DNA from: an uncultured Staphylococcaceae bacterium
GTDB taxonomy: Bacteria; Bacillota_I; Bacilli_A; ML615J-28; CAG-313
Length of the DNA: 64,000 bases
Assembly: GCA_964409955.1 (NCBI GenBank)
Contig: CAYPEY010000005.1
Location: 700-64,699, forward strand
Reading direction: 5' to 3'
Notes under the pieces: generated by a model
Databases searched by the model: none
The model's input: the letters and a program-made list of their open reading frames with translations, nothing else
Told to the model about the DNA's origin: nothing
Made by a program: the position numbers and the translations under genes
In this document: one piece after another, positions 1,794 through 57,952 of the stretch
How positions within the stretch are numbered: the stretch's first letter is position 1
Layout of the letters: each line of letters starts with the position of its first letter

Positions 1794-1902
1794 CTAAATC
1801 ACCTTCCAACTATATTATAACAAAAAATAAAAAAGTTTTGTTAAAATTTAATAAAAAAAAGTTTAAAAAATTTTTAACAAAAATTAGAAAGGAGTTCTCA
1901 TT

Positions 1903-4245
1903 ATGGATAATAAATTAGCTTTTTATAAATTACAAATGGATGTAATTTTAGAAAAACTTAGTGATTTTGCAATAATACCGAAGACTAAAAAGTTGATTGA
2001 TAATTTAAAACCATCAAGCGATATACTAGGTATCAAAGAAGAACTAGATCATACAGATGAATGTTTAAGAATTTTATATCGAGTTGAAAGAGCTCCAATT
2101 TGTATAAGTTCTGATTACGATAAAATATTAAAACTTGCAAGTAGGGATGCAATAATCCCCGCAATCGATCTATATGAAACTGTTAAGCTGTTTCAAACTG
2201 TTAAAGCTTGTGAAAAACATTTAGCAAATCTTCAAAAAGAACAAATAGAATGTGAATTTTATGCAAGTTTAGTAGAAGGCTTAATAGTTCTTGAATACCT
2301 AGAATCAAAACTTGTGAAATCAATTGATGAAAATGGTTATGTCTTAGATGAAGCAAGTCCAACTCTTAAATCTATCAGACGAAAAATTGCTCAAATTGAT
2401 GCTTCTATTAAGCATAAACTTCAAGAAATTATCGCAAAAGAAGGCGCAAAACTTAGTCAAACAAGCGTCGTGCTTCGAGATAATAGATATTGTTTAGCAG
2501 TAAGAAGTGAATATAAAAATCAAATTAAAGGGGTAGTGCTTGATACTTCCGCAAGCCAGCAAACATGTTTTATTGAACCACTTATTGTTGGACAACTTAT
2601 GAGTGATAAAAATCGCTTATATGAAGAAGAAAAAGAAGAAATTAATAAAATTATAAAAGAATTATCTTTAATGATAAGTGAAAATGTAGAAATATTAGAT
2701 GTTAATTTTCAAAATATTTGTAAAATTGACTATGTTTTTGCAAAAGCAATGCTAGCTATGAGTTATGATGGTAATAAACCAAATATTAACGATAATGCAA
2801 GACTTAATTTAGTAAATGCAAGACATCCTTTATTAAAGGTTAAAAAAGTAATACCTAATAATGTAAGTTTTGGTAAAGATTATTTAGGTATTATCGTAAC
2901 AGGACCTAATACTGGTGGTAAAACAGTGTTATTAAAAACTGTTGGTTTACTTTGCATGATGGTAAAATATGGATTATTAATTCCTGCTGATGAAACTAGT
3001 GATGTGATGATTTTTGATCAAATATTCTGTGATATTGGTGATGATCAAAGTATCGAAAGTAATTTATCGACTTTTTCATCACATATGAATAATATAACTA
3101 ACATTATTAATAATGTATCAAAAAAATCTTTAGTATTATTTGATGAAATAGGATCTGGTACTGATCCAGTTGAGGGAACAAATCTTGCAAAAGCAATACT
3201 TAAATATTTAATTAATAATGAGGTAAGCTTTATTACAACTACTCACTATTCAGAATTAAAAGCTTTTGCTTTTGAGAATCCTTTAATTATAAATGCTTCA
3301 ATGGAATTTGATCAAAACACTTTGTCTCCTACATATAAATTAAATTTAGGTGTAACGGGTTCTAGTAATGCATTTAATATTGCAAGAAAATTAGGCCTTA
3401 AAAAAGAAATCATTGAAGATGCTAAAATGATGGCATCGACAAAAAATGATGATTCTAGAAGGTTAATTTTAAAACTTGAAAAACAATCAAAAGAACTTGA
3501 AGATATAAAGAAGGAATATCTTGCAAAGACAATTGAAGCTGATAATATAAAAAGAGAATTTACTAAAAAGAGTGAAATTCTTGATAAAGAAAAGAATAAG
3601 ATTCTTAAAAAAGCTCAAGAAGAAGCAGACGAATTTGTCGATAAAGTTTCTAAAGAAGCTCTTGACATATTAGAAAAAGCTCATGATATTAAGAAAAACG
3701 ATGCTAAACTTCATCAAATTATCGAAGCAAAGCATCAGGTTAATTCTATTAATACAACAATTAAAAAAGAAAAGAAACCAAAGAAAATAAATAATATAAC
3801 ACTAGATGTTGGTGTAGATGTTTATATTCCGTCATACGATCAATATGGTATAATTGATAAAAAGTTAAATAATGGTTCATATGTTGTAAGTGTAGGAAAT
3901 ATGACACTTACTTTAAAAGCAAATCAACTTGAATCAGTTGAAAAACAAGTAGAGGTTCAAAAAAGCCAATCAAATATCGGTTATTCAGTATCTAAAGCTC
4001 GTATTTCATTAACACTGGACTTAAGAGGTAAAAGATATGAGGAAGCTAAAGATTTACTTGATAAATATATTGATGATTTAATTGTTGCGGGAATTAAACA
4101 GGCTAATATCATTCATGGCTTTGGAACTGGTGTTATTAGAGAACTCGTTAGAAACTATTTGAAAAATAATAAAAATGTTGATTCTTACCGATATGGTGGA
4201 GAAAATGAAGGAGGTTTAGGGGTAACAGTTGTTGTCCTAAAATAA
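1903..4245 (+). CDS. mutS2: Endonuclease MutS2 (MutS ATPase domain plus C-terminal Smr domain)
   Basis: 780 aa. Walker A GPNTGGKTVLLKTVGL, Walker B LVLFDEIGSGTDP and a C-terminal Smr region LDLRGKRYEEA...HGFGTGV. SD aaaggag. Confidence 0.95.
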   Translation: MDNKLAFYKLQMDVILEKLSDFAIIPKTKKLIDNLKPSSDILGIKEELDHTDECLRILYRVERAPICISSDYDKILKLASRDAIIPAIDLYETVKLFQTVKACEKHLANLQKEQIECEFYASLVEGLIVLEYLESKLVKSIDENGYVLDEASPTLKSIRRKIAQIDASIKHKLQEIIAKEGAKLSQTSVVLRDNRYCLAVRSEYKNQIKGVVLDTSASQQTCFIEPLIVGQLMSDKNRLYEEEKEEINKIIKELSLMISENVEILDVNFQNICKIDYVFAKAMLAMSYDGNKPNINDNARLNLVNARHPLLKVKKVIPNNVSFGKDYLGIIVTGPNTGGKTVLLKTVGLLCMMVKYGLLIPADETSDVMIFDQIFCDIGDDQSIESNLSTFSSHMNNITNIINNVSKKSLVLFDEIGSGTDPVEGTNLAKAILKYLINNEVSFITTTHYSELKAFAFENPLIINASMEFDQNTLSPTYKLNLGVTGSSNAFNIARKLGLKKEIIEDAKMMASTKNDDSRRLILKLEKQSKELEDIKKEYLAKTIEADNIKREFTKKSEILDKEKNKILKKAQEEADEFVDKVSKEALDILEKAHDIKKNDAKLHQIIEAKHQVNSINTTIKKEKKPKKINNITLDVGVDVYIPSYDQYGIIDKKLNNGSYVVSVGNMTLTLKANQLESVEKQVEVQKSQSNIGYSVSKARISLTLDLRGKRYEEAKDLLDKYIDDLIVAGIKQANIIHGFGTGVIRELVRNYLKNNKNVDSYRYGGENEGGLGVTVVVLK

Positions 4246-4246
4246 T

Positions 4247-4561
4247 ATGGATATAAAAGACATTCAAAATAGTAATATTGATTTACTTTTACAAAAAGAT
4301 AAATTAATAATTTTAGAATTTTATACTTCTTGGTGTCCTACTTGTAAAATGGTAGCAATCACTTTAGAAGAATTTGAAGAAGAGAATCCTGATGTTTTTA
4401 TTCTTCAAGTAAATGCTGATGAGAACAAGGAACTTGCATCTGTTTATAAAGTTAGAACAGCACCGACTCTTTTATTTATCAAAAAAGGAAAAGTTTTAGA
4501 AACTTATAACGGCTTTATTGATATTGATGAGTTAATAGAACTTGTAAATAACTTAAATTGA
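4247..4561 (+). CDS. Thioredoxin-family protein (CPTC active site)
   Basis: 104 aa. WCPTCK redox motif at the thioredoxin position. The start is 1 nt after the mutS2 stop. Confidence 0.8.
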   Translation: MDIKDIQNSNIDLLLQKDKLIILEFYTSWCPTCKMVAITLEEFEEENPDVFILQVNADENKELASVYKVRTAPTLLFIKKGKVLETYNGFIDIDELIELVNNLN

Positions 4562-4635
4562 AAAAAAATTATATAATTGCTTCTCATTTTATTTAAAAAG
4601 TGGTATACTATTAGTGTATAGGAGGTTCGAGAGAT

Positions 4636-5370
4636 ATGAATTTACAAGAAAAAAGAAATTATGTATTAGAAAATGTAGGATGCGTACCGGCTGAGGAATT
4701 AAAAGCATTTAATTTTAATTTAGCTTGCGTATTAACAAAGAACTCAGTAGGCATGGAAAGTGGTAAAACTGCATCACTTGAAGAAGTTGTATCTATTATT
4801 AAAGGTTACAATGTAAAAGTTGATGAAACTTTAAAAAGAAGTGTTTACAACTATTATAAAGCCTATAATATGGTTCTTGAATATTTAGAAAAGAACGAAA
4901 ATAAGGATTTAACAGAAGATTTCTTAAAAGATTTACATGCACAAATCATGAATGGTTTACTAGATGATGGTGGACTATATCGTAATGTAAATATTAAAAT
5001 TAATGGTTCTAACCATGTTCCATGTGACCATATTAAATTATATGATCGTATGGCAAAATATTTTAATGATGTAAATGGAAGAGAAACTGATAGTATGGCT
5101 GAGATCGCTTATGCACACTTACAACTTGCAAAACTTCATCCATTCCTAGATGGTAACGGAAGACTTGCACGTCTTGTATTAAATTTCTTCTTAATTAAAA
5201 ATGGATACTTACCAATTAGTATCAAGACAAAACGTCGTTTAGAATATTTTGATTTATTAGAAACTTTTAAAGTTGAAAAGAATCCTGTTCCTTTTGAAAA
5301 CTTCCTTGAAGATTTAGTAAGTCGTGAATATGATCGATTAATTGATTTAATCAATCATTTCAAAAAATAA
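4636..5370 (+). CDS. Fic/DOC family protein (canonical active site)
   Basis: 244 aa. Intact Fic motif HPFLDGNGRLAR. SD aggagg. Confidence 0.9.
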   Translation: MNLQEKRNYVLENVGCVPAEELKAFNFNLACVLTKNSVGMESGKTASLEEVVSIIKGYNVKVDETLKRSVYNYYKAYNMVLEYLEKNENKDLTEDFLKDLHAQIMNGLLDDGGLYRNVNIKINGSNHVPCDHIKLYDRMAKYFNDVNGRETDSMAEIAYAHLQLAKLHPFLDGNGRLARLVLNFFLIKNGYLPISIKTKRRLEYFDLLETFKVEKNPVPFENFLEDLVSREYDRLIDLINHFKK

Positions 5371-5402
5371 TACATTTATATTTCTCTTAAAAATATTAAA
5401 AA

Positions 5403-5436
5403 ACGATAATCATTTATAGTTGATTATCGTTTTTTT
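5403..5436 (+). terminator. Intrinsic terminator after the fic gene
   Basis: Perfect 10-bp stem acgataatca/tgattatcgt with an 8-nt loop, followed by T6. Confidence 0.8.
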
Positions 5437-5518
5437 CATGCTCTTTAAATTAATTAATCGTTTTACTTTCAAAAAAATGGTAAATTTGATATAATATTAT
5501 CAAGGAAAGAAGGAAATT

Positions 5519-6079
5519 ATGTTAGATAACCAAGTTCAAATCATTAGTTACAAACATAATGGTGTTCTTCATAGAGTTTGGCAATGTGCTTATGTAATAA
5601 GACAAACAAGCGATGTTATTGTAGTAGTAAATGATCATACTAACGTAATCGATGGTGATGGTCGAAGATGGAAAACAAAAGAACCAGCAGTATGTTATTT
5701 TTTTAAAAACTATTGGTTCAATATTATTTGTATGTTAAGAAATAATGGAATTTACTATTATTGTAACCTTAGTTCACCTTATGTTAAGGATTCTGAGGGG
5801 ATAAAGTATATTGATTATGATCTTGATGTTAAAGTTTTTCCTAGTGGTGATAAGATTATTCTTGACCGTGATGAATTTGAATTTAATAAAATTGATTATG
5901 GATATCCAGAAAAACTAGTTACTATTATTGAAAATGAATTACAAATTCTTTTAAAACGTATTGATAATAATGTACTTGCTTTTGATAAAGAAGTAGTTAT
6001 GAAAGATTTTGAAATTTACCAAAACTTAAAAAAACAAATAGATCGTAAGAAAAAGAAATCTCCAAAACAAAAAAAATAA
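5519..6079 (+). CDS. ntdp: Nucleoside tri/diphosphate phosphatase, UPF0374/DUF402 (YgaC/Ntdp-like)
   Basis: 186 aa. SYKHNGVLHRVWQ...YYYCNLSSP...IDYDLDVKVFPSG is typical of the family. Confidence 0.8.
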   Translation: MLDNQVQIISYKHNGVLHRVWQCAYVIRQTSDVIVVVNDHTNVIDGDGRRWKTKEPAVCYFFKNYWFNIICMLRNNGIYYYCNLSSPYVKDSEGIKYIDYDLDVKVFPSGDKIILDRDEFEFNKIDYGYPEKLVTIIENELQILLKRIDNNVLAFDKEVVMKDFEIYQNLKKQIDRKKKKSPKQKK

Positions 6080-6092
6080 TGTTGTCGCATTT

Positions 6093-6121
6093 GCAACTTA
6101 TAAAATAAGTTGCTTTTTTTC
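6093..6121 (+). terminator. Intrinsic terminator after ntdp
   Basis: Stem gcaactta/taagttgc with loop taaaa, followed by T7. Confidence 0.75.
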
Positions 6122-6159
6122 TTGGCAAAAATTCGCAAAAGTTATATAATTTTTGCGAA
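6122..6159 (+). promoter_or_regulatory. Sigma-A-type promoter of the AbiEi-like gene, with an inverted-repeat operator
   Basis: TTGGCA (6122-6127), 17-bp spacer, TATAAT (6145-6150). A perfect 9-bp inverted repeat ttcgcaaaa (6132-6140) / ttttgcgaa (6151-6159) brackets the -10 box. Confidence 0.65.
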
Positions 6160-6168
6160 GGTGTTATT

Positions 6169-6765
6169 ATGGAATCTGTAAAAAAACAATTGTTAAAAAA
6201 AATTCAATCATTAAAATTTAAGGCATTTACATCTGCTGATTTTTTAGATATAGCTAACTATAAAAGTATTAGTAAAGCACTAGAACAGTTAGAAGATAAA
6301 AAAGAAATAAGAAGAGTAATTAGGGGTGTATATGATTTTCCTAAGAAAAGTGATGTATTTCAAATAGAGGAAGCTCCTAATATAGAAGAGATAGCTAATG
6401 CTATAGCTAGACAATATAATTGGAATATTTGTCCAAGTGGTAATTTTGCGTTAAATTTGATCGGTATTAGTACACAAGTCCCATCTAAATATATTTTTGT
6501 GAGTAATGGACCTTATAGAAAGTATTTAATTGGAAAAAATGTGTTAGAATTTAAACATTCAACTTCTAAAGAAATAAATGCATTACCTTATAATATATTA
6601 TTAATTATTCAAACTTTTAAAGTGTTAGGAAAAGATTATGAATGTAATTCTTATGAAATGCAAAAAATGAAAAATGTTTTAAAAGGTTATGAAGATTTCA
6701 TTAAAAATAATAAATATAATATTACATCATGGATATATGAAAAAATATTTAAATTGATTGATTAG
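6169..6765 (+). CDS. AbiEi-type antitoxin-like protein (DUF6088 family)
   Basis: 198 aa. RRVIRGVYDFPKKS...CPSGNFALNLIGISTQVP...YIFVSNGPYRKYLIGKNVLEFKHS matches my recollection of DUF6088/AbiEi N-terminal wHTH proteins. Confidence 0.75.
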   Translation: MESVKKQLLKKIQSLKFKAFTSADFLDIANYKSISKALEQLEDKKEIRRVIRGVYDFPKKSDVFQIEEAPNIEEIANAIARQYNWNICPSGNFALNLIGISTQVPSKYIFVSNGPYRKYLIGKNVLEFKHSTSKEINALPYNILLIIQTFKVLGKDYECNSYEMQKMKNVLKGYEDFIKNNKYNITSWIYEKIFKLID

Positions 6766-6790
6766 AAGAATAAAAATTTCTCTTATATCT

Positions 6791-22775: not shown

Positions 22776-24716
22776 ATGGCAAAAAATGTAAATACTTATA
22801 ATGAAGATTCCATACAAGTCTTACAAGGACTAGAAGCCGTTAGAAAAAGACCAGGGATGTATATCGGGTCAACTGATTCAAGAGGGCTTCATCACCTCGT
22901 ATGGGAAATTGTCGATAATGCGATTGACGAAGCACTATCAGGCTATGGTTCTCAAATAATAGTAAATATTCATAAAGATAATAGTGTTGAAGTTATTGAT
23001 AATGGTCGTGGTATTCCAACTGGTATTCATAAAGTTGAAAAACGTCCGACACCAGAAGTAATCTTTAATACCTTACATGCCGGTGGTAAATTTGATGCCG
23101 AAGGCGGATATAAAGTATCAGGGGGATTACATGGTGTAGGTTCAAGTGTTGTTAATGCTTTAAGTGAATGGCTAACAGTAACAATTCACAGAGATGGTAA
23201 AATCTTTAATCAAACTTATCGTAATGGTGGCAAGATTATAGAAAAGCCAAAGAATCTTGGAGACACTAAAAGAACTGGATCTACAATTCACTTTAAACCT
23301 GATCCTAAAATCTTTTCAGTAACTATTTACGACTATAAAACAATTGCACAAAGGCTAAAAGAATCTGCATATTTAATTAAAGGGTTAAGAATTGAACTTA
23401 ACGATTTAAGAACAAATAAATCAGAAACATTCTTATTTGAAAATGGAATTGTTGAATTTATCAAGAGTTTAACAGCTGGAAAAGAAGCTTTATATGAACC
23501 GGTATCTCTTTCTGGGAATATGTTGAAAATTAACATTGAAGTTGCAGCGGTATATTGTGAAAAGAGCTTTAATGAAAATATACTATCTTTTGTTAATAAT
23601 ATTAGAACTCGTGATGGCGGAACTCATGAAGTAGGTTTCAAATCAGCATTTACAAGAGCATTTAATGAACATGCAAGATTAATAGGCGCTCTAAAAGAAA
23701 AAGATTTAAATTTAGAAGGTGCAGATATTCGTGAAGGTTTAACTGCAATCATTTCAGTTCGTATTCCTGAAGATTTATTACAATTTGAAGGACAAACTAA
23801 GAATAAACTAGGTACAGCTGAAGCTAAGATGGCAGTTGAACAAGTTGTTTATGAACAAATGAAAGCTTATCTTGCTGAAAACGGTCAAATCGCTAGTAAC
23901 TTAATAAATAGAGCTCTACGTGCTCTAAAAGCACGTGAAGCTGCTAAAAAAGCTCGTGATGAAATCCGAATGGTTAAACAAAAGACTTCTAAACCTGCTA
24001 ACTTAATAGGTAAACTTACACCAGCTCAATATAAGAATCCAGATAAGAATGAATTATTCTTAGTCGAAGGGGATTCTGCCGGTGGTACTGCAAAACAAGG
24101 TCGTGATAGAACATTCCAAGCAATTCTTCCTTTACGTGGTAAAGTTGTTAATACCGCAAAAGCAAAACTTGAAGAAGTTCTTAAAAATGAAGAAATAATG
24201 TCTATTATAAATGCTATAGGAGGAGGATTTGGTCCAGATTTTGATTATACTAAATCTAATTATAATAAAGTTATTATAATGACCGATGCCGATACCGATG
24301 GAGCTCACATTCAAACCCTACTTTTAACTTTCTTCTATCGTTATATGAAACCTCTTGTAGAACAAGGAATGGTTTATATTGCAACTCCACCTCTATATAA
24401 GATTACTTATAAATCTAATATTGAGTATGCATGGACTGATGAAGAGTTAAGAGAAAAGATTCAAAAACGTAATGTTCAAATTCAACGTTATAAAGGGTTA
24501 GGGGAAATGAATGACCAACAATTATGGGAAACTACAATGGATCCTACAAGAAGAACTTTAATAAAAGTATTAATAGGCGAAGATGGCGCTGCAGAAAATA
24601 AGATGAACATTCTTATGGGTGATGATGTTGAGCCTCGTAGAGAATGGATTGAAAATAATGTTGTATTTGACAATGATGATAATTTCATTTTGGAAGGAGG
24701 AATGCTAGATGAGTAG
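22776..24716 (+). CDS. parE: DNA topoisomerase IV subunit B
   Basis: 646 aa type IIA B subunit (GHKL, Toprim EGDSAGG, PLRGK). Called ParE rather than GyrB from the plsY-parE-parC context. Confidence 0.85.
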
Positions 24717-27177
24717 TAAAAATAATCTTTCTAAAAAAATGGAAAAGTTTGTTGAAGAATTCTTAACAGAAAATTTTGAAGATATTATGGGAGATAGATT
24801 TGGAAGATATTCAAAATATATCATTCAAGATCGTGCTCTTCCAGATGTTCGAGATGGTTTGAAACCTGTTCAACGTCGTATCTTATTTGCGATGTTTAAA
24901 TTAGGACTTTTCTCCAATAAACAATTTAAAAAATCAGCCCGTATCGTCGGGGACGTTATTGGTAAATATCATCCACATGGTGATACTGCAGTTTATGATG
25001 CAATGGTTAGAATGAGTCAAGACTTCAAAATTTTATTACCGCTTGTAGATATGCATGGTAATAATGGTAGTATTGATGGTGACCCTGCTGCCGCAATGCG
25101 TTATACAGAAGCCAGAATGAGTAAATACTCAGAACTTATGCTAGAGGATTTAGGAAAACATACAGTAGGTTTTGTTCCAAACTTTGATGATGAAGAACTT
25201 GAACCTATTGTCCTTCCATCAAAATTTCCAAATATCTTAGTTAATGGTGCTTCAGGTATTTCAGCTGGTTATGCAACAGAAATTCCTCCACATAATCCAG
25301 GTGAAGTAATTGATGCGACAATTTATAGAATCAATAATCCTGCTTGTACAGTTGATGAATTAATGCAATTTGTAAAAGGCCCAGATTTTCCAACAGGAGC
25401 TATCATTCAAGGATTAGATGGATTAAAGAGTGCATATGAAACTGGACGTGGAAAAGTAATTGTTAAATCAGATGTTGAGATAGATAGAAGTAAAGCTGAA
25501 CCTAAAATTATCATTTCTTCAATTCCATTTGATGTAAACAAGGCTGTGTTACTTAAAAAAATGAGCGATTCTCTTCAAGCGAAAAACATTGAAGGCGTTA
25601 AAATGATTCGTGATGAATCAAGTAGACAAGGTTTAAGAATTGTTATAGATATTAGACGTGATGTTAATCCAGAAAACATTTTAAATTTCTTATACAAACA
25701 AACTGATTTACAAACAACTTATAACTTTAATATGGTCGCAATATCACAAGGCCGTCCAATGCAAATGGGACTTGCGGACATATTAGATGCTTATATTGTT
25801 CACCAAAAAGAAGTAATTACAAATAGATGTAACTATGAACTAGAAAAATCTCTTAAACGTATTGAAATCGTTCAAGGTTTAATCTCAATGGTATCTATCT
25901 TAGATGCGGTTATTACAACAATCAGAAATTCTAAAAACAAGATGGATGCTAAAGAAAATATTATTTCTAAATATGGATTTACAGAAATTCAAGCTGAAGC
26001 TATTGTTACTTTACAATTATATCGTTTAACTAATACTGATATATTTGCTTTAAAGACAGAATATAATGAACTTGAAAAAGCTATTAAACAATTAAAACAT
26101 ATCTTATCTAGTGAAACTGCTTTACTAAAAACAGTAGTTGCGGAACTTACACGTGTTAAAGAAATAGTAAATGTTGAAAGAAAAACAAAGATTGAAGATG
26201 AAGTTGAAGAAGTCGAAGTTAATACTGAAGAATTCATCCCTAAAGAAGATGTAATGTTAATGATTACTCATGACGGATACTTAAAACGTCTAAGTAAGAA
26301 AGCATTCCTTGCAACAACAGAACCAACTAAACTTAAAGAAGGCGATGTTATCACTGATATTTACGAAGTATCAACTACTGATACCCTTCTACAATTCACT
26401 GACTTCGGAAATTACATATTCTTACCAATTCACAAGATTCCAGAGTGTAAACATAAAGATCTTGGCTTCCATGTAAGTACTTTAATTGGTATGGAACCTA
26501 ATGAAAAAGTAATATTCTCATTCCCTGTTGATGATTTCAATAAAGAACGATATGTATTACTTGCGACAAGATCAGGTTTAATCAAACGTATTCAATTATC
26601 TAGCTTACATGTGACTCGTTATTCTAAAGCATTAAAAGCTACCAAACTTAAAGATGGTGATTGCGTAGTTAGTGCTGACGTTGTAACAGGAAGTAACTAT
26701 GAAGTAGTAATAGCTACGAAAGACGGATTCATGAACCGTTATGATGCTTCCGAAGTTAGTATTATAGAACCTGCATCATTTGGTGTTAAATCTATAGAAC
26801 TTAAGAACAGACCTAATGACTATGTAGTAGGTGCTAAATATGTCAGTGAAAAAGATATTGTATTAATTCTTACTAATCGTGGTAATATTAAACGCTTAAG
26901 ACCTGAAGAAATTAATAAGGGTAAGAAGAACAACGTTGGTAAGATGTACTTAAAAGCTGTTAAGTCAAATATGCATGAAGCAATTGATTTAGAAGTCATT
27001 CACGGAAAGAATGCAAATTCTGATCTTGCAAGTTATGTATTCTGTGATGATAACTATGTAGATATTGATTATACATTACTTAGAACTGCGATAGCTGATA
27101 ACGGTAAAAAGTTTGTATCTAAAGGTAAACCTCAAGAAATTGTAGTTTGCCGAAATCAATTTGATTTAGAGTTATAA
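24709..27177 (+). CDS. parC: DNA topoisomerase IV subunit A
   Basis: 822 aa. [11 protein letters not shown] and [10 protein letters not shown] (catalytic Tyr). No GyrA-box noticed in the C-terminal domain. Confidence 0.85.
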
Positions 27178-47057: not shown

Positions 47058-48179
47058 ATGTTAGGTCTTTATATTCACATTCCTTTTTGTAATAATATCT
47101 GTCCTTACTGTGATTTTACAAAAACCGTAAGCACAAGTGAACGTAAAAATTCTTACATAGAAGCGCTCTGTCGTGAGATGAAATTAAAAAAACTGGATAA
47201 TTATTCGTTCAAGTCCGTTTACATCGGGGGCGGAACACCTTCATCACTTGACTTAAACAAGTTAGATTATTTACTGACTTCCTTAAATAATTACATAAAT
47301 TTATCAGATCTTGAAGAATTTACAATCGAATGTAATCCTAAAGACATAACTTTAGATTTTATTAAATTAATAAAAAAACATCATATAACTAGAGTAAGTA
47401 TTGGTGTTCAAACTCTTAATCCTAAACTTCAAAAAACTATTAATCGTTTTGTGACAATTAACGAATTAGATGAAATCGTAAATAAATTAAGATTAAATGG
47501 AATTGAAAATATTAACATTGATTTAATGTATGCCATACCTGGTGAAACCCTAGATGATCTAAACAATGATTTATCAGAAATTATAAAACTTAATGTTCCT
47601 CATCTATCAGTTTATTCTTTAATTTTAGAAGAAAAAACTATTTTCTATCACTTATACAAAAAAGGAACATTAGATTTAATATCTGAAGATTTAGAAAGTA
47701 CCATGTACAAAACAGTAGTTTCAAGATTAAAATCTAACGGTTATAATCACTATGAAACTAGTAATTTTTCTAAAATTGGTTATGAATCACGTCATAATCT
47801 CATATATTGGAATTGTGATGAATATATTGCCATAGGTGCAGCTGGTAGCTCATATTTTGAAAACAGACGTACTACTAACACAAAAAATATCACAAAATAC
47901 ATCAATAAAATTAATAACTTTATTATCGAACTAGATGAAGACGAATTTATATCAAAAGAAGAAGCTATGAATGAAATGATTATCCTAGGACTTAGAAAAT
48001 GTTCAGGTATCAATACAAGTGAATTTCTAAAAAAATTCGGCACTGAAATAACTGAACAATTCCCAAAAATTCATGATCTTATTAAAGAAGGTTTATTAGC
48101 GTTTTCTAATAATCATTTATTTATACCAGAAGAACACATCTATATTAGTAATCACATTATCGTAAAAATACTTAATTAG
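47058..48179 (+). CDS. hemW: Radical-SAM haem chaperone HemW (HemN-like)
   Basis: 373 aa. YIHIPFCNNICPYCDF. Follows lepA, as in Bacillus. Confidence 0.9.
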   Translation: MLGLYIHIPFCNNICPYCDFTKTVSTSERKNSYIEALCREMKLKKLDNYSFKSVYIGGGTPSSLDLNKLDYLLTSLNNYINLSDLEEFTIECNPKDITLDFIKLIKKHHITRVSIGVQTLNPKLQKTINRFVTINELDEIVNKLRLNGIENINIDLMYAIPGETLDDLNNDLSEIIKLNVPHLSVYSLILEEKTIFYHLYKKGTLDLISEDLESTMYKTVVSRLKSNGYNHYETSNFSKIGYESRHNLIYWNCDEYIAIGAAGSSYFENRRTTNTKNITKYINKINNFIIELDEDEFISKEEAMNEMIILGLRKCSGINTSEFLKKFGTEITEQFPKIHDLIKEGLLAFSNNHLFIPEEHIYISNHIIVKILN

Positions 48180-48190
48180 GATGATATAAT

Positions 48191-48739
48191 TTGTTAAAAA
48201 AGACTATAAAAAAAACTAATAAATTAATATTTAGTATTATATTATTTTTAACTATTGGAATAATAATAGGTGTAATAACAACAAATAATTTAAAAGGTAT
48301 CGATTATGAAATTGTTAAAAGTGACAAGAGTTATTTAGAAATATTCCTTAATTCTTTTTCACTAAATTATTGGTATTTATTCATTATTTGGTTTTTTGGA
48401 CTTGTTCCAATAGGCTTTATTATCGATTATTTTATTGTCTTTTTTAAAGGATACATTCTTGGAATTACCATAGGTGTTGCTTTAAAGAGTGTATCAGTTA
48501 TAGGAATTTTTATGTTTCTAAAATTCAGTTTTTTAGAAATATTAATAATTATACCAACTCTTATTTATCTAGCTAATAAAAGTATAAAAAACTCATTTGT
48601 TGGCAGAAGAATTCTTGAAAAAAGTAACGAAAATTACTTTAATGTTTTAGTTAAAGTAACCATTATTATCATAATATTTGCAATATTAACATGTATAAAA
48701 TTTACCACATTGGAGGCACAAACATGCATGATTTATTAG
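48191..48739 (+). CDS. spoIIM: Stage II sporulation protein M
   Basis: 182 aa polytopic protein with a TTG start after SD aggatga. Sequence pattern and the spoIIM-xerD-deoB context match B. subtilis. Confidence 0.7.
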   Translation: MLKKTIKKTNKLIFSIILFLTIGIIIGVITTNNLKGIDYEIVKSDKSYLEIFLNSFSLNYWYLFIIWFFGLVPIGFIIDYFIVFFKGYILGITIGVALKSVSVIGIFMFLKFSFLEILIIIPTLIYLANKSIKNSFVGRRILEKSNENYFNVLVKVTIIIIIFAILTCIKFTTLEAQTCMIY

Positions 48740-49620
48740 TAGAATACCAACATTACCTCATCTCAGAGAAGATGAAAGGTGAAAATACTGTAAAATCGTA
48801 TTCAAGTGATTTAGAAAACTATCTATATTACCTAGAACAAAAGTTATTAATTGATGATGTGAGCCTTATTACAACTGATTCTATAAAGAAATTTTTAACT
48901 TATCTAAAAAAACTAGGTTATAGCGCATCATCATCTAGTAGAGCACTAAGTGCAATTAAAAGTTTTCATAAATTTTTATTTATAGAACACCATACAAAAA
49001 CTAATCCGGCAACATCTCTTTCTAGTCCAAAACTTGAAAAGAAATTACCTACTGTTTTGTCAATAGAAGAAGTATTAAAGCTACTTGATACTCTTGATTC
49101 ATCTACGCCCTATAATCAAAGAAATCAAGCAATGATTGAGTTAATGTATGCAACAGGTCTACGTGTATCAGAGCTAGTTTCTCTAAAATTAACTGATTTA
49201 CATCTAACAAATAAAATGATTTCAACTACAGGTAAAGGAAATAAAGAACGTATTGTTCCTATTAACGACTATGCTTCTAAAATTTTAAGAAATTATATAA
49301 TAGAAGCCCGTCCAAAACTCGTAATACCATCACGTGATGAAGGTTATGTCTTCTTAAACAACCAAGGTACAGCAATTTCTCGTCAAAGTTTCTTCCTTAT
49401 TTTAAAAGAAATAGCTAAAAAAGCAGGAATTTCTAAAGAAATTTCACCTCATACCTTAAGACATTCGTTTGCAACTCATTTACTAGAAGCTGGAACAGAT
49501 CTAAGATTAATTCAAGAAATGTTAGGTCATGAAGACATATCAACTACCCAAATTTACACACATTTAAGTAATAAAAAATTAAAAGAAATTTATAAAGGAG
49601 CCCATCCTCATGAAGAATAA
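48724..49620 (+). CDS. xerD: Tyrosine recombinase XerD
   Basis: Tracked start is 48691. The ATG at 48724 follows SD ggaggc. ATGLRVSEL, HTLRHSFATHLL, GHEDISTTQIYTH. Called XerD rather than XerC from synteny with ripX-drm. Confidence 0.8.
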   Translation: MHDLLVEYQHYLISEKMKGENTVKSYSSDLENYLYYLEQKLLIDDVSLITTDSIKKFLTYLKKLGYSASSSSRALSAIKSFHKFLFIEHHTKTNPATSLSSPKLEKKLPTVLSIEEVLKLLDTLDSSTPYNQRNQAMIELMYATGLRVSELVSLKLTDLHLTNKMISTTGKGNKERIVPINDYASKILRNYIIEARPKLVIPSRDEGYVFLNNQGTAISRQSFFLILKEIAKKAGISKEISPHTLRHSFATHLLEAGTDLRLIQEMLGHEDISTTQIYTHLSNKKLKEIYKGAHPHEE

Positions 49621-50794
49621 ATTTAAAAGAATATTTGTTATAGTTGCTGATTCACTAGGGATTGGTGAGGCAGATGATGCTAGATATTATAACGATTTAG
49701 GTGCTAATACCTTTGGCCATATTGCAAATTTCTCAGAAAATTTCGAAATCCCAACATTAAAACGTCTTGGAATCGGTAATCTTTGTCCAAATCGTAAAAT
49801 TTCTCCAGTTTTTCCACCACTTGGAGTTGTGATGAGACTAAAAGAAACAAGTGTTGGTAAAGATACGCTTACAGGACACTTTGAAATAATGGGATTAAAG
49901 GTAGATAATCCTTTTCCATCTTTCACAGATACCGGTTTTCCTCAAGAATTAATCGAAAAAATCGAAAAATTTAGTGGAAGAAGAGTTATTGGTAACATCT
50001 CAGCAAGCGGTACCGAAATAATCAAAGATTTAGGTGAAGTTCAACTTAAAACTGGAGCATTAATAATCTATACTTCAGCTGATTCAGTCCTTCAAATTGC
50101 CGCAAACGAAGAAATTATTCCACTTGATGAACTATATAAAGTTTGTGAATACGCAAGAAAAATCACAATAGAGAACAAAGAATGGCAAGTTGGGCGTATT
50201 ATTGCCCGTCCATTTGTTGGAAGTTCAAAAGAAAACTTCAAAAGAACGACAAATCGCCACGATTATGCCTTAAAACCATTTGATAAAACTGTTTTAAATC
50301 ATTTAAGTGAAGAAAATTATGATGTAATTGCTATTGGAAAGATAAATGATATCTTTGATGGCTATGGAATTACTAAAGCACTCAGAACAGTTTCTAACCA
50401 TGATGGTATGGAAAAAACAATTTCTATGATAGAAGAAGACTTTACCGGGCTTTGTTTTACAAATTTAGTTGATTTTGATGCTTTATACGGCCACAGACGT
50501 GATTTAGAAGGTTATAAAAACGCTATTGTTGAATTTGATGCTGATTTAAATAATTTTATTTCTAAAATGAAAGATGATGACTTGCTAATGGTTGTTGCCG
50601 ATCATGGAAATGATCCAGTTCATCATGGAACTGACCATACTCGCGAAAACGTACCATTAATAATCTATCATAAAAATATCGTTGGTAAGATGTTACAAGA
50701 TCAAAATTCATTTGCTACCGTTGGTGCAACAATTTCCGAAAATTTTAAAGTGAAGATGCCTAAAATTGGAAATTCCGTTCTAAAGGAACTTTAA
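49610..50794 (+). CDS. deoB: Phosphopentomutase
   Basis: 394 aa. VADSLGIGE, LVDFD..YGHRRD and ADHGNDP motifs. Confidence 0.95.
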   Translation: MKNKFKRIFVIVADSLGIGEADDARYYNDLGANTFGHIANFSENFEIPTLKRLGIGNLCPNRKISPVFPPLGVVMRLKETSVGKDTLTGHFEIMGLKVDNPFPSFTDTGFPQELIEKIEKFSGRRVIGNISASGTEIIKDLGEVQLKTGALIIYTSADSVLQIAANEEIIPLDELYKVCEYARKITIENKEWQVGRIIARPFVGSSKENFKRTTNRHDYALKPFDKTVLNHLSEENYDVIAIGKINDIFDGYGITKALRTVSNHDGMEKTISMIEEDFTGLCFTNLVDFDALYGHRRDLEGYKNAIVEFDADLNNFISKMKDDDLLMVVADHGNDPVHHGTDHTRENVPLIIYHKNIVGKMLQDQNSFATVGATISENFKVKMPKIGNSVLKEL

Positions 50795-50805
50795 AAGGCC
50801 TTCTC

Positions 50806-50819
50806 AGAGCGTTCGAAAC
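50806..50819 (+). repeat. Copy B of the GAGCGTTCGAAA motif (just after the deoB stop)
   Basis: agagcgttcgaaac. CATTCAAA follows 22 nt downstream, the same spacing as in copy A. Confidence 0.75.
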
Positions 50820-50867
50820 TTTTTTTGACGATTAATTATTCATTCAAATTTTTTTAGGAGCCCTTAT

Positions 50868-50900
50868 AAGTGATTCATTTATTGAATCACTTTTTTATTT
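50868..50900 (+). terminator. Intrinsic terminator after deoB
   Basis: Stem aagtgattc/gaatcactt with a 7-nt loop and T-run. Confidence 0.75.
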
Positions 50901-51233
50901 TTTAAAAAATTATAAGTTTTCTATAAACAAACGAAATATCATAAGATGAATAAGTGATTGCTCGTTTACTAATAAAATAATATTTTTATAACAAATAAGC
51001 TTCGTCTAAAAGGGTGAAATAAAATTATATGAATAAATGATTATTTATTAAATAATAAGCTTCTAAAATTGACCCATTCTGTAAAACGATGAAATTAAAA
51101 AAGACAAACGATTAACCATTCAAATTATAAACGATTTAAATAACATAAATGTTGATAAAAATACAGTTATAAACAGTTATTAACATATTTAAATTTTTAT
51201 TAATTTTAGTCCTTTTTACCTTTGTTTTTTATC

Positions 51234-51261
51234 GGTTAACATAATATATATTATAGGAAGT
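51234..51261 (-). other. dif: dif chromosome-dimer resolution site (XerC/XerD target)
   Basis: The minus strand reads ACTTCCTATAA-TATATA-TTATGTTAACC. This matches recalled B. subtilis dif ACTTCCTAGAATATATATTATGTAAACT at 25 of 28 positions. It lies in a gene-free region at the point where gene orientation converges, 1.6 kb from xerD. Confidence 0.85.
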
Positions 51262-51276
51262 TAAACACAAATATAA

Positions 51277-51310
51277 AAACTAGTTCAATTAAATAAATAA
51301 ACTAGTTCAA
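51277..51310. repeat. Two copies of AAACTAGTTCAA (each holds the 8-bp palindrome AACTAGTT), 22 bp apart
   Basis: Identical 12-mers at 51277-51288 and 51299-51310, 16 bp from dif. Confidence 0.8.
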
Positions 51311-51456
51311 CTCGTATAGATTAAGCGTTTATTGGTTAATTTCTACTTGTTTTTTAATTTAAACTAACTCAAAACCACTGCCTATGACTATATTTATTTT
51401 CTCGAATTTTGATGGTTCTTTTAAAATTCACGATATATCGTTTTAAACCGACAACG

Positions 51457-51485
51457 TTGACATTTATTCGTTTTGTTGATAAAAA
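51457..51485 (+). promoter_or_regulatory. Orphan promoter-like element in the terminus region
   Basis: TTGACA (51457-51462), 17-bp spacer, TAAAAA with an upstream TG. The perfect 12-bp palindrome ACGATATATCGT sits at 51430-51441, just upstream. Confidence 0.3.
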
Positions 51486-51547
51486 TCTTATATTCGCTTA
51501 ATTTTAGCCCCAGATTACCATTTAACTTCTACTTCTTATCCCCTCTG

Positions 51548-51561
51548 TGAGCGTTTGAAAT
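51548..51561 (+). repeat. Copy C of the TGAGCGTTCGAAAT motif
   Basis: Identical to the 14-mer at 45038-45051. It forms a direct repeat with copy B, and the two bracket the dif region. Confidence 0.8.
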
Positions 51562-51602
51562 TTTAAAACCTTAACAACCAATTGTTCGTTTTATTTAAAA
51601 GC

Positions 51603-51640
51603 AACAAAAAAAGGACTAAATTTTGTAATTTAGTCCTTCT
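51603..51640. terminator. Bidirectional terminator overlapping the 3' end of the PHP gene
   Basis: Perfect 12-bp stem aaggactaaatt/aatttagtcctt with a 3-nt loop, flanked by A7 and a T-run. Confidence 0.85.
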
Positions 51641-52443
51641 ATTTTGTCTACCGGTTCAAGTCCGATTTTTTCTACTATTTCATAAATATATAAAGTGTAT
51701 TCATCTTGAATTCTGTTAGGTGCGTGTGCATCATCATTAATCATAACTTTAGCGTTCATCGATTTTGCAAGTTCCCAAAACTCACGTCTTGGATACGCAA
51801 AATTAATTCCTTTATCATCGTAAAATTCTTTTCTTTGATAAAACGAATTTCTAACACCATTAACATTAATTTCTAAGATTACGTTGTTTTCGATTGCAGA
51901 GGTGATGATTTGTTTTGATGCTTCTATTACTTCATCATTCCATTCTCTAATGTTCCACATAAAGATTTCTGGATGTGCTACTACCTTAAATAAGCCACTT
52001 TCAATCCCGTCAACAATCGTTTGTGCATAAATTTTAATTTCGTCAGCTGTAAGAGGTTGATAAATACTCTTATAACCATCTTTTACTTTAATGTAATGTT
52101 GACCAAGTATCATTAAATCTAAATCTCTTTGAAATTTCGGATAAATCGGTTTTAGTTCATCTAAGTATTCGATTTCAACACCTTTAAAGATATTAACCTT
52201 ATCACCTAGATTATTTTTAGCTCTATTTAAATGATCTAAGTAAATTTCATCATATTGTTCCATTGTCATTCGACGAGATTTTAACTTCTTTTGAAGAAAT
52301 TTTGGAAAAGGTCCATGGTCAGTGATTGCAATAGAATGATATCCCAACTCTATAGCACGTTTTACATAGTCTTCAACATCACCTATTGCATGTTTGCATA
52401 AAAATGTATGAGTATGATAATTTGATTTAATCTTTGTTTTCAT
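51616..52443 (-). CDS. PHP-domain phosphoesterase (HisJ-family histidinol-phosphatase-like)
   Basis: 275 aa. NYHTHTFLCKHA, ITDHGP, GVEIEY, AHPE and NDDAH metal-ligand pattern. Confidence 0.85.
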   Translation of the reverse strand: MKTKIKSNYHTHTFLCKHAIGDVEDYVKRAIELGYHSIAITDHGPFPKFLQKKLKSRRMTMEQYDEIYLDHLNRAKNNLGDKVNIFKGVEIEYLDELKPIYPKFQRDLDLMILGQHYIKVKDGYKSIYQPLTADEIKIYAQTIVDGIESGLFKVVAHPEIFMWNIREWNDEVIEASKQIITSAIENNVILEINVNGVRNSFYQRKEFYDDKGINFAYPRREFWELAKSMNAKVMINDDAHAPNRIQDEYTLYIYEIVEKIGLEPVDKIEGLNYKI

Positions 52444-53482
52444 ATTTTACTCCAAATAACATTTTTGGGTCATCTTCTTTCATTATTTTCATCCAACGAG
52501 CACTTCTTCCTTTTCCAAGTGGCATAATTACGCCCATGTCACGCAGTTTAAATAAGCTTCTATTAATTGTAGAATCGCTCGCATCAGGATGATATCTTCT
52601 CACATCGTCTTTTGTGAAAAACTCAGGAACTTTATGATAGATAGTTTCTTCAATAACATCACTTTTAAACGCATGTGATTGAAAAGCATAATTTTTTAAT
52701 ACTACATCAAGATCATCATAAGCTTCTTGAATCATTTTAAACATAAGTCTAACAAGACCACTCGCTTGAAGATAGTTTTCTGTATAATTCAAACTCCCCA
52801 GCCTTACCTCTTCTTTTATTTTTGTTAAATTTTTATATAATAACTCAAAAAAACTCACATATCTAAAGGCTTCAACTTTTGAATACAACATCATATAATA
52901 CATCGCAAGATAGGTTGCCATTTCATTATAGTTTGTATATGGTTCAATGTTAGTCATTTCCATAAAAGCAATAACAGATAAAAATATCGGTTCGAAAATT
53001 CGATTATTACTAAAATTAAAATATTCTTCTAAGACTTTTTCATAAACCAACCTTTTACTTATTGGTTTAATGTTTTTCTTTCCTTTAAACATATCTTTAG
53101 AAAAACTAACTTTACCCTTTCCAAAAATAATATTTAAATAATCTTGAACATCACTGCCATTAAAAGGCAAATTATTAGTAGTATCTCTTGTGATTAAAGT
53201 TAAGACTTTTTTAATTCCTACTATCGCTTCTTCTTGCTTATTTTTAGGAATAGAATCTTTTGTTATCAAAAGTCTTAATCTATTTTCAGTGATTTCAAGT
53301 CCTAATAAACAAGCTACAAAGAATGTATCTTTATCAAGAGTATCTTTTATTAAAACATCTTTTTTATCACCTATTTTTATTAAATATTCATTATTCATTC
53401 CAAGGAGTTTATAAGTATCTAACATGTCCATTAACACATCCGATGGAATGCTGTAATGTTTTAAAACTTCAAAATTATTCAT
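52427..53482 (-). CDS. Fic-like protein with a degenerate active site and C-terminal wHTH
   Basis: Tracked TTG start is 53530. The ATG at 53482 follows SD gaggt. EPYTNYNEMATY occupies the HPFxxGNGRxxR position. The C-terminus DASDSTINRSLFKLRDMGVIMPLGKGRSARW is a Fic-type wHTH. It overlaps the PHP gene by 17 nt. Confidence 0.6.
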   Translation of the reverse strand: MNNFEVLKHYSIPSDVLMDMLDTYKLLGMNNEYLIKIGDKKDVLIKDTLDKDTFFVACLLGLEITENRLRLLITKDSIPKNKQEEAIVGIKKVLTLITRDTTNNLPFNGSDVQDYLNIIFGKGKVSFSKDMFKGKKNIKPISKRLVYEKVLEEYFNFSNNRIFEPIFLSVIAFMEMTNIEPYTNYNEMATYLAMYYMMLYSKVEAFRYVSFFELLYKNLTKIKEEVRLGSLNYTENYLQASGLVRLMFKMIQEAYDDLDVVLKNYAFQSHAFKSDVIEETIYHKVPEFFTKDDVRRYHPDASDSTINRSLFKLRDMGVIMPLGKGRSARWMKIMKEDDPKMLFGVKYENKD

Positions 53483-53589
53483 AGTACTAACCTCACTTGT
53501 AATTATATCTAAAATCAATATTTTTCGCAAGTAATTTTGTAAAAAAAATAAGTAAACAAGAGTTTTAAGAGACTTCTTGTTTACTTTAT

Positions 53590-56914: not shown

Positions 56915-57952
56915 TTATTCCATAAAAACGCACTTTTTTGCGATTAATTCATTTTCAAGATAATAATTTATAAAAATAGCTTCATCTGTTTCTATAATTT
57001 CATAATCTATAACTTCATTTTTTAAAACAGGTAAAAGCAGTTCACTCACATCAACCTGTTCATTTATACTTGTTGTAAGATACAAATCAAATAAAGAAAT
57101 TACTTGAACCATTTTATATTTATTAAAAATATATTCTTTTAAGTTTTGATGAAGAGTCCAATCATCACTACATTTAAAAGTTACAACAACAATTTCAAAA
57201 CCATCCTGCTCAAATAAACTAACCAGCGTTCGATGCGCACTTTTCGTATAACCTGTTTTTCCAAGTAACGCAACATTGTTTCTAACAAGGCGATGTTTAT
57301 TTACAAAGTACATCTTCTTACCACTTGCGATAGTTGGATAATATTCTTTTGTACTAGCAATTTTTTTAAACTCTTCATTTTTAGATGCGTACGATGTAAG
57401 CAATGCCATATCATAGGCGGTTGTATAATTTTTGGTTTCTTCATCTAAACCACTGGGGTTATTGAAATAAGAATTCTTCATCCCAATCTTTTTAGCAGTT
57501 TTATTCATTAAATCAATAAAATCTGATTCTTCTCCAGATAAAACAAAAGATAGCACCTTCGCCGCATCATTTCCACTACATAGCATAAGTCCATATAAAA
57601 GATCTCTAATGCTAATAACATCACCACTAGCTAAATATATTGAGGAACCATTTGTTTTTATCATTTCATCAGTTACAACTACAAGACGATCTAAATCATA
57701 ATTTTCAATTGCAACTATACAAGTTAAAATTTTAGTAATGGATGCGGGGAGAAGTTTTTCATAAGCGTTTTTCTCATATAAAATTCTACCTGTTCCAACA
57801 TCCATAACAATTGTACTTCTTGCGTTATCATATATTTTACTATTTACTACCATTTCCGATTTTTCTGTAATTCCAGAAATTATTACAATAATTGCACAAG
57901 CAAGTAACACCAACCATAACCATATTTTTTTCAAGATCATCACCTTATTCAT
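56915..57952 (-). CDS. D-alanyl-D-alanine carboxypeptidase (S11 PBP, DacB/DacF-like)
   Basis: 345 aa with a signal/TM segment. Motifs SITKIL, SGND and KTGYT. Confidence 0.9.
   Translation of the reverse strand: MNKVMILKKIWLWLVLLACAIIVIISGITEKSEMVVNSKIYDNARSTIVMDVGTGRILYEKNAYEKLLPASITKILTCIVAIENYDLDRLVVVTDEMIKTNGSSIYLASGDVISIRDLLYGLMLCSGNDAAKVLSFVLSGEESDFIDLMNKTAKKIGMKNSYFNNPSGLDEETKNYTTAYDMALLTSYASKNEEFKKIASTKEYYPTIASGKKMYFVNKHRLVRNNVALLGKTGYTKSAHRTLVSLFEQDGFEIVVVTFKCSDDWTLHQNLKEYIFNKYKMVQVISLFDLYLTTSINEQVDVSELLLPVLKNEVIDYEIIETDEAIFINYYLENELIAKKCVFME

Follow-up and report, generated by a model that had tools for sequence, protein, structure and literature searches.

A predicted chromosomal dif site at the replichore junction of an uncultured low-GC gut bacterium

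The replichore junction and its 28-bp site

The window, by which we mean the whole 64,000-nucleotide stretch that was analysed, has a G+C content of about 29% and contains a single place where genes and skew change direction together. Its first 50 kb or so have positive GC skew, and everything beyond about 51 kb has negative skew; a change from positive to negative on the given strand is the polarity of a replication terminus. The preliminary description had proposed a dif site at this polarity switch, and a two-segment change-point analysis of GC skew agrees, placing the switch at 51060, 174 bp from the site. The cumulative A-T curve reaches its maximum at 51175. The cumulative G-C curve peaks at 50612, on a flat plateau of ∼4 kb (47060–51507), so that skew alone places the switch only within a few kb. 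Gene orientation follows the same division: among open reading frames (ORFs) of at least 150 aa, 33 lie on the plus strand and four on the minus strand to the left of the site, compared with none and 10, respectively, to its right.

The site lies in the sole convergent intergenic spacer of the window, which is ∼820 bp long. The features considered here are as follows.

48724–49620, plus strand: xerD, a tyrosine recombinase gene (NCBIfam XerD equivalog; alternative start 48691)
49610–50794, plus strand: deoB, flanking the spacer on the left
50795–51615, no strand assigned: convergent intergenic spacer at the replichore junction, from the deoB stop to the stop of the PHP gene
51234–51261, minus strand: predicted dif site of 28 bp, reading ACTTCCTATAATATATATTATGTTAACC and matching reference dif sites
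51234–51244, minus strand: putative XerD (RipX) binding arm TTATGTTAACC, 9/11 to the E. coli XerD arm
51245–51250, minus strand: central region TATATA (6 bp), the same as the B. subtilis central region
51251–51261, minus strand: putative XerC (CodV) binding arm ACTTCCTATAA, from alignment to B. subtilis and E. coli dif
51616–52443, minus strand: PHP/HisJ-family gene, flanking the spacer on the right
52427–53482, minus strand: ORF of 351 aa (367 aa from an alternative start at 53530) with a Fido-domain match to PDB entry 8uqu

Apart from the site, the spacer (50795–51615) has few recognisable features. It contains no ORF longer than 45 aa, and an Rfam search of 50500–51900 returned two sub-threshold chance matches and nothing with E < 0.4. 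Terminator-like hairpins follow deoB (50868–50892) and mark the end of the PHP gene (51609–51640). A search of a plasmid collection with the spacer in distant mode gave no match. The spacer is 100% identical in two Logan metagenome assemblies (SRR14307658 and SRR14307642), which makes the source of the DNA metagenomic.

The minus strand of 51234–51261 reads ACTTCCTATAA TATATA TTATGTTAACC, exactly as first described. Its architecture is 11+6+11, with two 11-bp arms that show inner dyad symmetry around the 6-bp central region. The inner ATAA and two further positions are common to both arms; the outer positions are asymmetric, with differences at five of seven. The preliminary description had given the B. 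subtilis and E. coli dif sequences, and both proved to be the experimentally confirmed ones (ACTTCCTAGAATATATATTATGTAAACT and GGTGCGCATAATGTATATTATGTTAAAT, respectively; Kono et al. 2011, PMC3025954). A recount of the claimed match to B. subtilis dif again gave 25 of 28 positions. The claimed resemblance of the XerD arm to that of E. coli also stands: TTATGTTAA is common to both, and the arms agree at nine of 11 positions within an overall identity of 20/28. Among dif sites predicted for other species, the site is identical at 26/28 positions to that of S. aureus, at 26/28 to that of B. anthracis, and at 25/28 to that of Acholeplasma laidlawii, which has the same XerD arm, TTATGTTAACC (Kono et al. 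2011, Table S1). The exact 28-mer is absent from this 2011 catalogue of predicted dif sites (PMC3025954, Table S1).

Such a sequence is not expected by chance in the window. Matches to B. subtilis dif with three or fewer mismatches occurred in none of 100 dinucleotide shuffles, and the analytic expectation at the base composition of the window is ∼1e-5 per 64 kb. The second-best match to the 28-mer in the window has eight mismatches, which is the chance level seen in shuffled sequence. XerD-only sites have been reported in B. subtilis for SMC unloading; in the window, XerD half-sites with at most one mismatch are found nowhere else (2.8 expected by chance). The preliminary description had named two findings that would count against a dif site, namely many equally good copies or a position far from the skew switch, and neither appeared in the available data.

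Candidate guide motifs for a DNA translocase are also polarised about the site. GAAGAAG is the KOPS motif shown for the FtsK protein of Lactococcus lactis (PMC3384302). To the left of the site, 31 copies point toward it and one away; to the right, eight point toward it and none away (39 versus one in total). This polarity is only suggestive because nearly all genes run in the direction of replication and GAAGAAG can be read as a string of Glu-Glu codons. The window has essentially no copies of the B. subtilis SRS motif GAGAAGGG or of the G-rich E. coli KOPS GGGNAGGG.

The neighbouring recombinase and conservation of the site in relatives

A xerD gene had been noted 1.6 kb from the site, and profile searches bear out both the identity and the distance. 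The product of ORF 48691/48724–49620 scores 363.9 bits against an XerD equivalog cut-off of 329.6, and falls below both the NCBIfam XerC cut-off (314.9 versus 335.15 bits) and the XerS cut-off (121 versus 267 bits). Among solved structures its best match is E. coli XerD (1a0p), to which it aligns over its full length. The YATGLRVSEL, GKGNKER, SPHxLRHxFATHLL, and LGHxDxSTTQIYTH blocks are identical in this alignment; we take the catalytic residues, R-K-H-R-H-Y, to lie in these four blocks (R, K, H-x-x-R, H, and Y). Public assemblies call the protein in its 298-aa form, with the start at 48724, and two Logan metagenome assemblies contain it; an exact-protein search with the 309-aa form gave no match. 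The 64-kb window contains no second tyrosine recombinase, including any XerC/CodV paralogue, and no FtsK/SpoIIIE gene.

A SpoIIM-family ORF (48191–48739) overlaps the start of xerD; it passes the Pfam threshold for PF01944 (48.5 bits) and scores 45.7 bits against an NCBIfam SpoIIM equivalog cut-off of 100.2. The parE and parC genes (22776–27177) encode Gram-positive-type topoisomerase IV subunits, both above their equivalog cut-offs, and lie about 24–28 kb from dif on the same replichore. A D-Ala-D-Ala carboxypeptidase-like gene at 56915–57952 suggests that the organism has a cell wall. Its closest relatives are labelled Mollicutes, Bacilli, or Erysipelotrichaceae.

The 28-mer is shared well beyond the species of the window. 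In a species-representative genome collection, the exact sequence occurs in 70 stretches from 70 different assemblies, one copy in each; by chance 0.0014 copies would be expected in the entire 596-Gb collection. Most of these genomes belong to Anaeroplasmataceae, Acholeplasmatales, Izemoplasmatales, or uncultured Bacilli or Mollicutes; Virgibacillus litoralis is also among them, as are two complete chromosomes (OW818673.1 and CP074575.1). None belongs to the species of the window, and the highest DNA identity between the window and any of the 70 loci is 76%. Flanks outside the 28-mer are unconserved across the set, a contrast between flank and site that is partly built in, since the loci were picked by the exact 28-mer.

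These loci were oriented on the site and their two sides compared. Of the 38 informative loci (those with at least 1.5 kb on both sides), 32 show positive GC skew to the left and negative skew to the right, and the reverse is seen in none. In half of the exact-site loci (35/70) a xerD gene was found, without exception on the side of the XerD arm, on the same strand, and at a distance of 1–8 kb; deoB usually follows it. The XerC-arm side usually carries a homologue of the 351/367-aa ORF of the window, and often the PHP gene. Some loci (such as L022, L030, L043, L050, and L054) are without these neighbour genes, and there too the skew flips at the site. This persistence of the skew flip among unrelated neighbours indicates that the sequence tracks the terminus and not a particular gene.

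Loci chosen without reference to the site give a complementary picture. Eighty metagenome loci were retrieved by XerD homology alone. We used the 19 in which XerD was at least 48% identical and downstream sequence extended for 4 kb or more. Seventeen of the 19 contain a site with zero to four mismatches, located 2.3–3.8 kb downstream of xerD and always in the orientation seen in the window; in shuffled versions of these loci the best match never had fewer than seven mismatches. Variation among the sites of relatives is confined to positions 2, 4–7, 24, 27, and 28, in the outer arms, and falls mainly at XerC-arm positions 2 and 4–7 among the XerD-selected relatives (e.g., ACTTCCTATAATATATATTATGTTAACT, ATTTCC..., ACTACCGATAA..., AGTTATCATAA..., and ...TTATGTAAAGT). 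The core ATAA-TATATA-TTATGT is invariant in all variants with zero to four mismatches. The pattern described for dif sites by Kono et al. is likewise one of a variable XerC arm with a conserved XerD arm and core (PMC3025954).

Two XerD-related loci depart from this arrangement. The close relative L081 (XerD 77% identical) has no dif-like sequence within 8 kb despite carrying xerD-deoB. Its gene order is lepA-hemW-spoIIM-like-xerD-deoB, followed by an extra 300-aa ORF, and its skew flips near 6 kb; either dif has moved in this genome or the contig is rearranged. The more distant L105 (XerD 49% identical) also has xerD-deoB, with no dif-like site within 8 kb and no skew flip.

The proposed reaction and its alternatives

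We conclude, with a probability of about 90%, that the 28-mer at 51234–51261 is the chromosomal dif site of a low-GC uncultured gut bacterium. This assignment draws on the 11+6+11 layout of the site, its near-identity to Firmicutes dif sites, both validated and predicted, and its position at the switch in skew and gene orientation. It also draws on the nearby cognate xerD, the single copy in the window, the exact copies in 70 species at syntenic, terminus-like positions, and the XerD-selected loci, in which the site is conserved and its variation confined to the outer arms.

A mechanism can be proposed by analogy with B. subtilis and E. coli. Sister chromosomes would become fused into a dimer after an odd number of crossovers between them. 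An FtsK/SpoIIIE-type translocase, reading strand-polarised motifs that converge on dif, would then bring the two dif copies together at the closing septum and activate strand exchange. A XerC/CodV-type recombinase encoded elsewhere in the genome would bind the ACTTCCTATAA arm (51251–51261), and the XerD encoded 1.6 kb away would bind the TTATGTTAACC arm (51234–51244). The recombinases would exchange pairs of strands at the borders of TATATA (51245–51250), resolving the dimer.

The position of xerD raises an alternative in which the adjacent XerD-like recombinase processes dif alone, as a single-recombinase system of the XerS/difSL, XerH/difH, or archaeal XerA type. A recombinase gene adjoining its site is typical of such systems, and here xerD lies near the site, on the same side and strand, in 35/70 exact-site and 17/19 XerD-selected loci. 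Kono et al. found xerD genes generally near the origin and not near dif (PMC3025954), and the absence of a second tyrosine recombinase from the window points the same way. The arms of the site argue otherwise: they differ at most of their outer positions and the left arm is of the Bacillus/Staphylococcus XerC type, which together imply two different binding specificities. The encoded protein also passes the XerD equivalog cut-off and falls short of those for XerS and XerC, and the 28-bp site with its 6-bp spacer is shorter than the 31-bp difSL. Linkage of xerD to dif may instead be historical, since a xerD-deoB neighbourhood is also found in B. subtilis, far from dif. Furthermore, A. laidlawii, whose predicted dif has the same XerD arm, was among the species selected by Kono et al. 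as bearing XerCD (PMC3025954). Given the asymmetry of the two arms, we consider a single-recombinase system unlikely.

Mobile elements that exploit Xer recombination use the same sequence, and it is conceivable that the site is an attachment junction or pseudo-dif left by such an element (IMEX) instead of the functional dif of the host. The clearest example is a relative, L057, that carries an identical dif (1865–1892) and, in the same orientation, a pseudo-dif ACTTCCTATAATATATACTAAATTATCT (6745–6772), with 4.85 kb between them. The pseudo-dif reads ACTTCCTATAA TATATA CTAAATTATCT, in which the XerC arm and central region are intact and the XerD arm is degenerate. The intervening element (1865–6772) has small ORFs all on one strand, encodes a protein with a rolling-circle Rep origin-binding domain (Rep_OBD, PF01719, 57.5 bits), and has a weak Zot-like match. 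This layout appears to be the signature expected of Xer-mediated integration at dif, and the element is probably a filamentous-phage-like IMEX. The dif/pseudo-dif pair suggests that the site recombines in vivo.

Two viral contigs also carry dif-like sites with the same XerC arm and central region. One is a 5.9-kb contig (L155) with the site ACTTCCTATAATATATAAAATGTTAACT, which has three mismatches. The other (L156) has ACTTCCTATAATATATATTATGTTAAAT 73 bp from the end of an 8.4-kb stretch taken from a 47.5-kb provirus call. No element of this kind is present in the window. It contains no second dif-like site with seven or fewer mismatches that would mark an IMEX, the next best match being the one with eight. 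The XerD arm of its site is intact and not degenerate, the flanking genes are housekeeping genes that are syntenic in many species, and no phage or plasmid genes adjoin the site. We therefore regard the idea that the site is a remnant of integration as very improbable.

The weakest alternative is that the sequence arose by chance as an AT-rich palindrome, or serves the neighbouring genes as an ordinary promoter or terminator element. It would account for the TATAAT within the site, the sigma-70-like match TTTATA-16-TATAAT on the minus strand, and the very AT-rich surroundings, yet it has almost no probability left. Promoter-like matches in the region are no more frequent than in shuffles (five found, 7.7 expected). 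Downstream on the minus strand the first gene met is deoB, in antisense orientation; the site is without a GC-rich stem; and the low chance expectation of a dif match stands beside 28 bases identical across 70 species with differing flanks and, in some cases, differing neighbour genes. Conservation and skew data effectively refute it.

Conserved flanking elements and relation to known systems

Several further elements near dif are conserved among close relatives. They are seen when the spacer of the window is aligned with those of its 25 distinct closest relatives (XerD identity 61–82%; 26 sequences). Tandem DnaA-box-like motifs, GTTATAAACA and GTTATTAACA, occur at 51166–51185, and inverted DnaA-box-like copies of TTATCAACA at 51150–51158 and 51474–51482. 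The consensus is GTTAT-N-(C/A)-ACA, and its GTTAT..AC core is invariant, and its distance from dif constant, in every one of the 26 aligned sequences. Many relatives have a perfect TTATCCACA and a second DnaA-box-like copy upstream. In the window, TTATCMACA occurs seven times against 2.6 expected, an excess that is reached in two of 100 shuffles and is only suggestive.

A T-rich block, CTTTTTACCTTTGTTTTTTATC (51212–51233), directly adjoins the XerD arm. Its consensus is TTTTTACTT..TTTTTTA, in which TTTAC is nearly invariant across the 26 aligned sequences, where the rest of the spacer has diverged. The pattern of this T-rich flank shows no enrichment elsewhere in the window.

On the other side of the site, an inverted repeat, AAACTAACTCA-N13-TGACTATATTT, spans 51361–51395 and has the consensus AAAC-N4-TCA...TGA-N4-GTTT. 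Its arms pair in 75% of cells of the alignment; sliding the partner columns lowers this to 34–41%. Invariant positions are the outer AAA/TTT and the inner TCA/TGA, with variable sequence between them, and some relatives (L004 and L097) have perfect arms of 11–12 bp. The pattern occurs once in the window, where 2.9 occurrences are expected by chance at that stringency, and RNAalifold found no consensus structure for the conserved palindrome. From its sequence, the palindrome looks more like the binding site of a dimeric protein than an RNA hairpin. A direct repeat, AAATAnAnAAACTAGTTCAA, occurs twice within 51269–51310, 22 bp apart and starting 8 bp past the XerC arm. It is private to the species of the window (identical in L071) and unconserved in relatives.

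The ORF at 52427–53482 matches the Fido-domain protein of solved structure 8uqu (E = 1.6e-8 in a PDB sequence search), and has no Pfam or NCBIfam match, even at E = 10. The Fic motif is HPFxxGNGR; the ORF reads EPYTNYNEM where 8uqu has HPFPDGNGR, and the motif thus appears not to be preserved. The C-terminus (...STINRSLFKLRDMGVIMPLGKGRSARW) looks like a winged helix. Homologues of this protein (28–46% identity) are encoded on the XerC-arm side in most of the 70 exact-site loci, often ∼440 bp away.

These observations allow a conjecture, to which we give little credence, that dif is the centre of a conserved terminus module comprising xerD-deoB, the degenerate Fido/winged-helix protein, and the conserved spacer elements. 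Such a module would have xerD-deoB on the XerD-arm side and the putatively catalytically degenerate Fido/winged-helix protein on the XerC-arm side. Its spacer would contain the tandem DnaA-box-like GTTATNMACA motifs ∼50–70 bp from dif, the T-rich block at the XerD arm, and the palindrome with 12-bp arms ∼100 bp from the XerC arm. One or more of the spacer elements could bind a factor specific to the terminus, for instance a protein that arrests forks, unloads SMC, or assists Xer; the winged-helix (Fido) protein is a possible candidate. A parallel to the proposed module is provided by rtp and tus, which sit beside their Ter sites.

The dif assignment places the replichore junction in the DNA of an uncultured gut bacterium, and through it part of an 820-bp non-coding spacer acquires a function. 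Related metagenome-assembled genomes can be oriented and closed with the site as an anchor. Small Rep/Zot-like elements also use the exact 28-mer, common to at least 70 species, as a landing site, which helps in annotating prophages and IMEXs. Our understanding of dimer resolution is unchanged by the site. What is mildly notable is that the xerD-deoB-dif arrangement is conserved and that an identical 28-mer is so widely shared.

Several known systems offer points of comparison. IMEX attachment sites, such as those of CTX-phi and TLC, belong to the same sequence family; the window site differs in having no partner site or element. The XerS/difSL system of streptococci and lactococci resembles the window in that the recombinase gene is close to a site at the terminus. 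Its difSL is 31 bp long and divergent (PMC3025954). Membership of the window site in the XerS/difSL system is ruled out by its 28-bp length, its 6-bp spacer, and the XerS score of 121 versus 267 bits.

The E. coli dif/XerCD/FtsK system has the same architecture as the window site, with the XerD-arm sequence TTATGTTAA and the inner ATAA/TTAT dyad in common. Its XerC arm is unrelated to that of the window, leaving the overall identity at 20/28, and its KOPS is the G-rich GGGNAGGG, whereas the polarised motif of the window is the A-rich GAAGAAG.

For S. aureus, the B. anthracis/cereus group, and A. laidlawii, the comparison is with dif sites predicted for cultured species (Kono et al. 2011, Table S1). 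The 2011 catalogue failed for Clostridium perfringens and C. beijerinckii, and it placed 'dif' sites of C. botulinum 137–175 degrees from the skew shift (PMC3025954, Table S1). Its predictions for Clostridium sensu stricto look unreliable; the organism of the window is not among them.

The closest experimentally confirmed counterpart is the B. subtilis dif/CodV/RipX system. Both sites are 28 bp long in an 11-6-11 arrangement with the same TATATA, and both are at the replichore junction of a low-GC Firmicute with a XerD-type recombinase. Relative to B. subtilis dif (25/28), the window site is changed at one position of the XerC arm (G9T) and at two of the XerD arm (A24T and T28C). The B. subtilis ripX gene is far from dif, whereas xerD in the window is 1.6 kb from it. 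The site is a canonical Firmicutes-type dif, of an ordinary and well-known kind that is routinely predicted.
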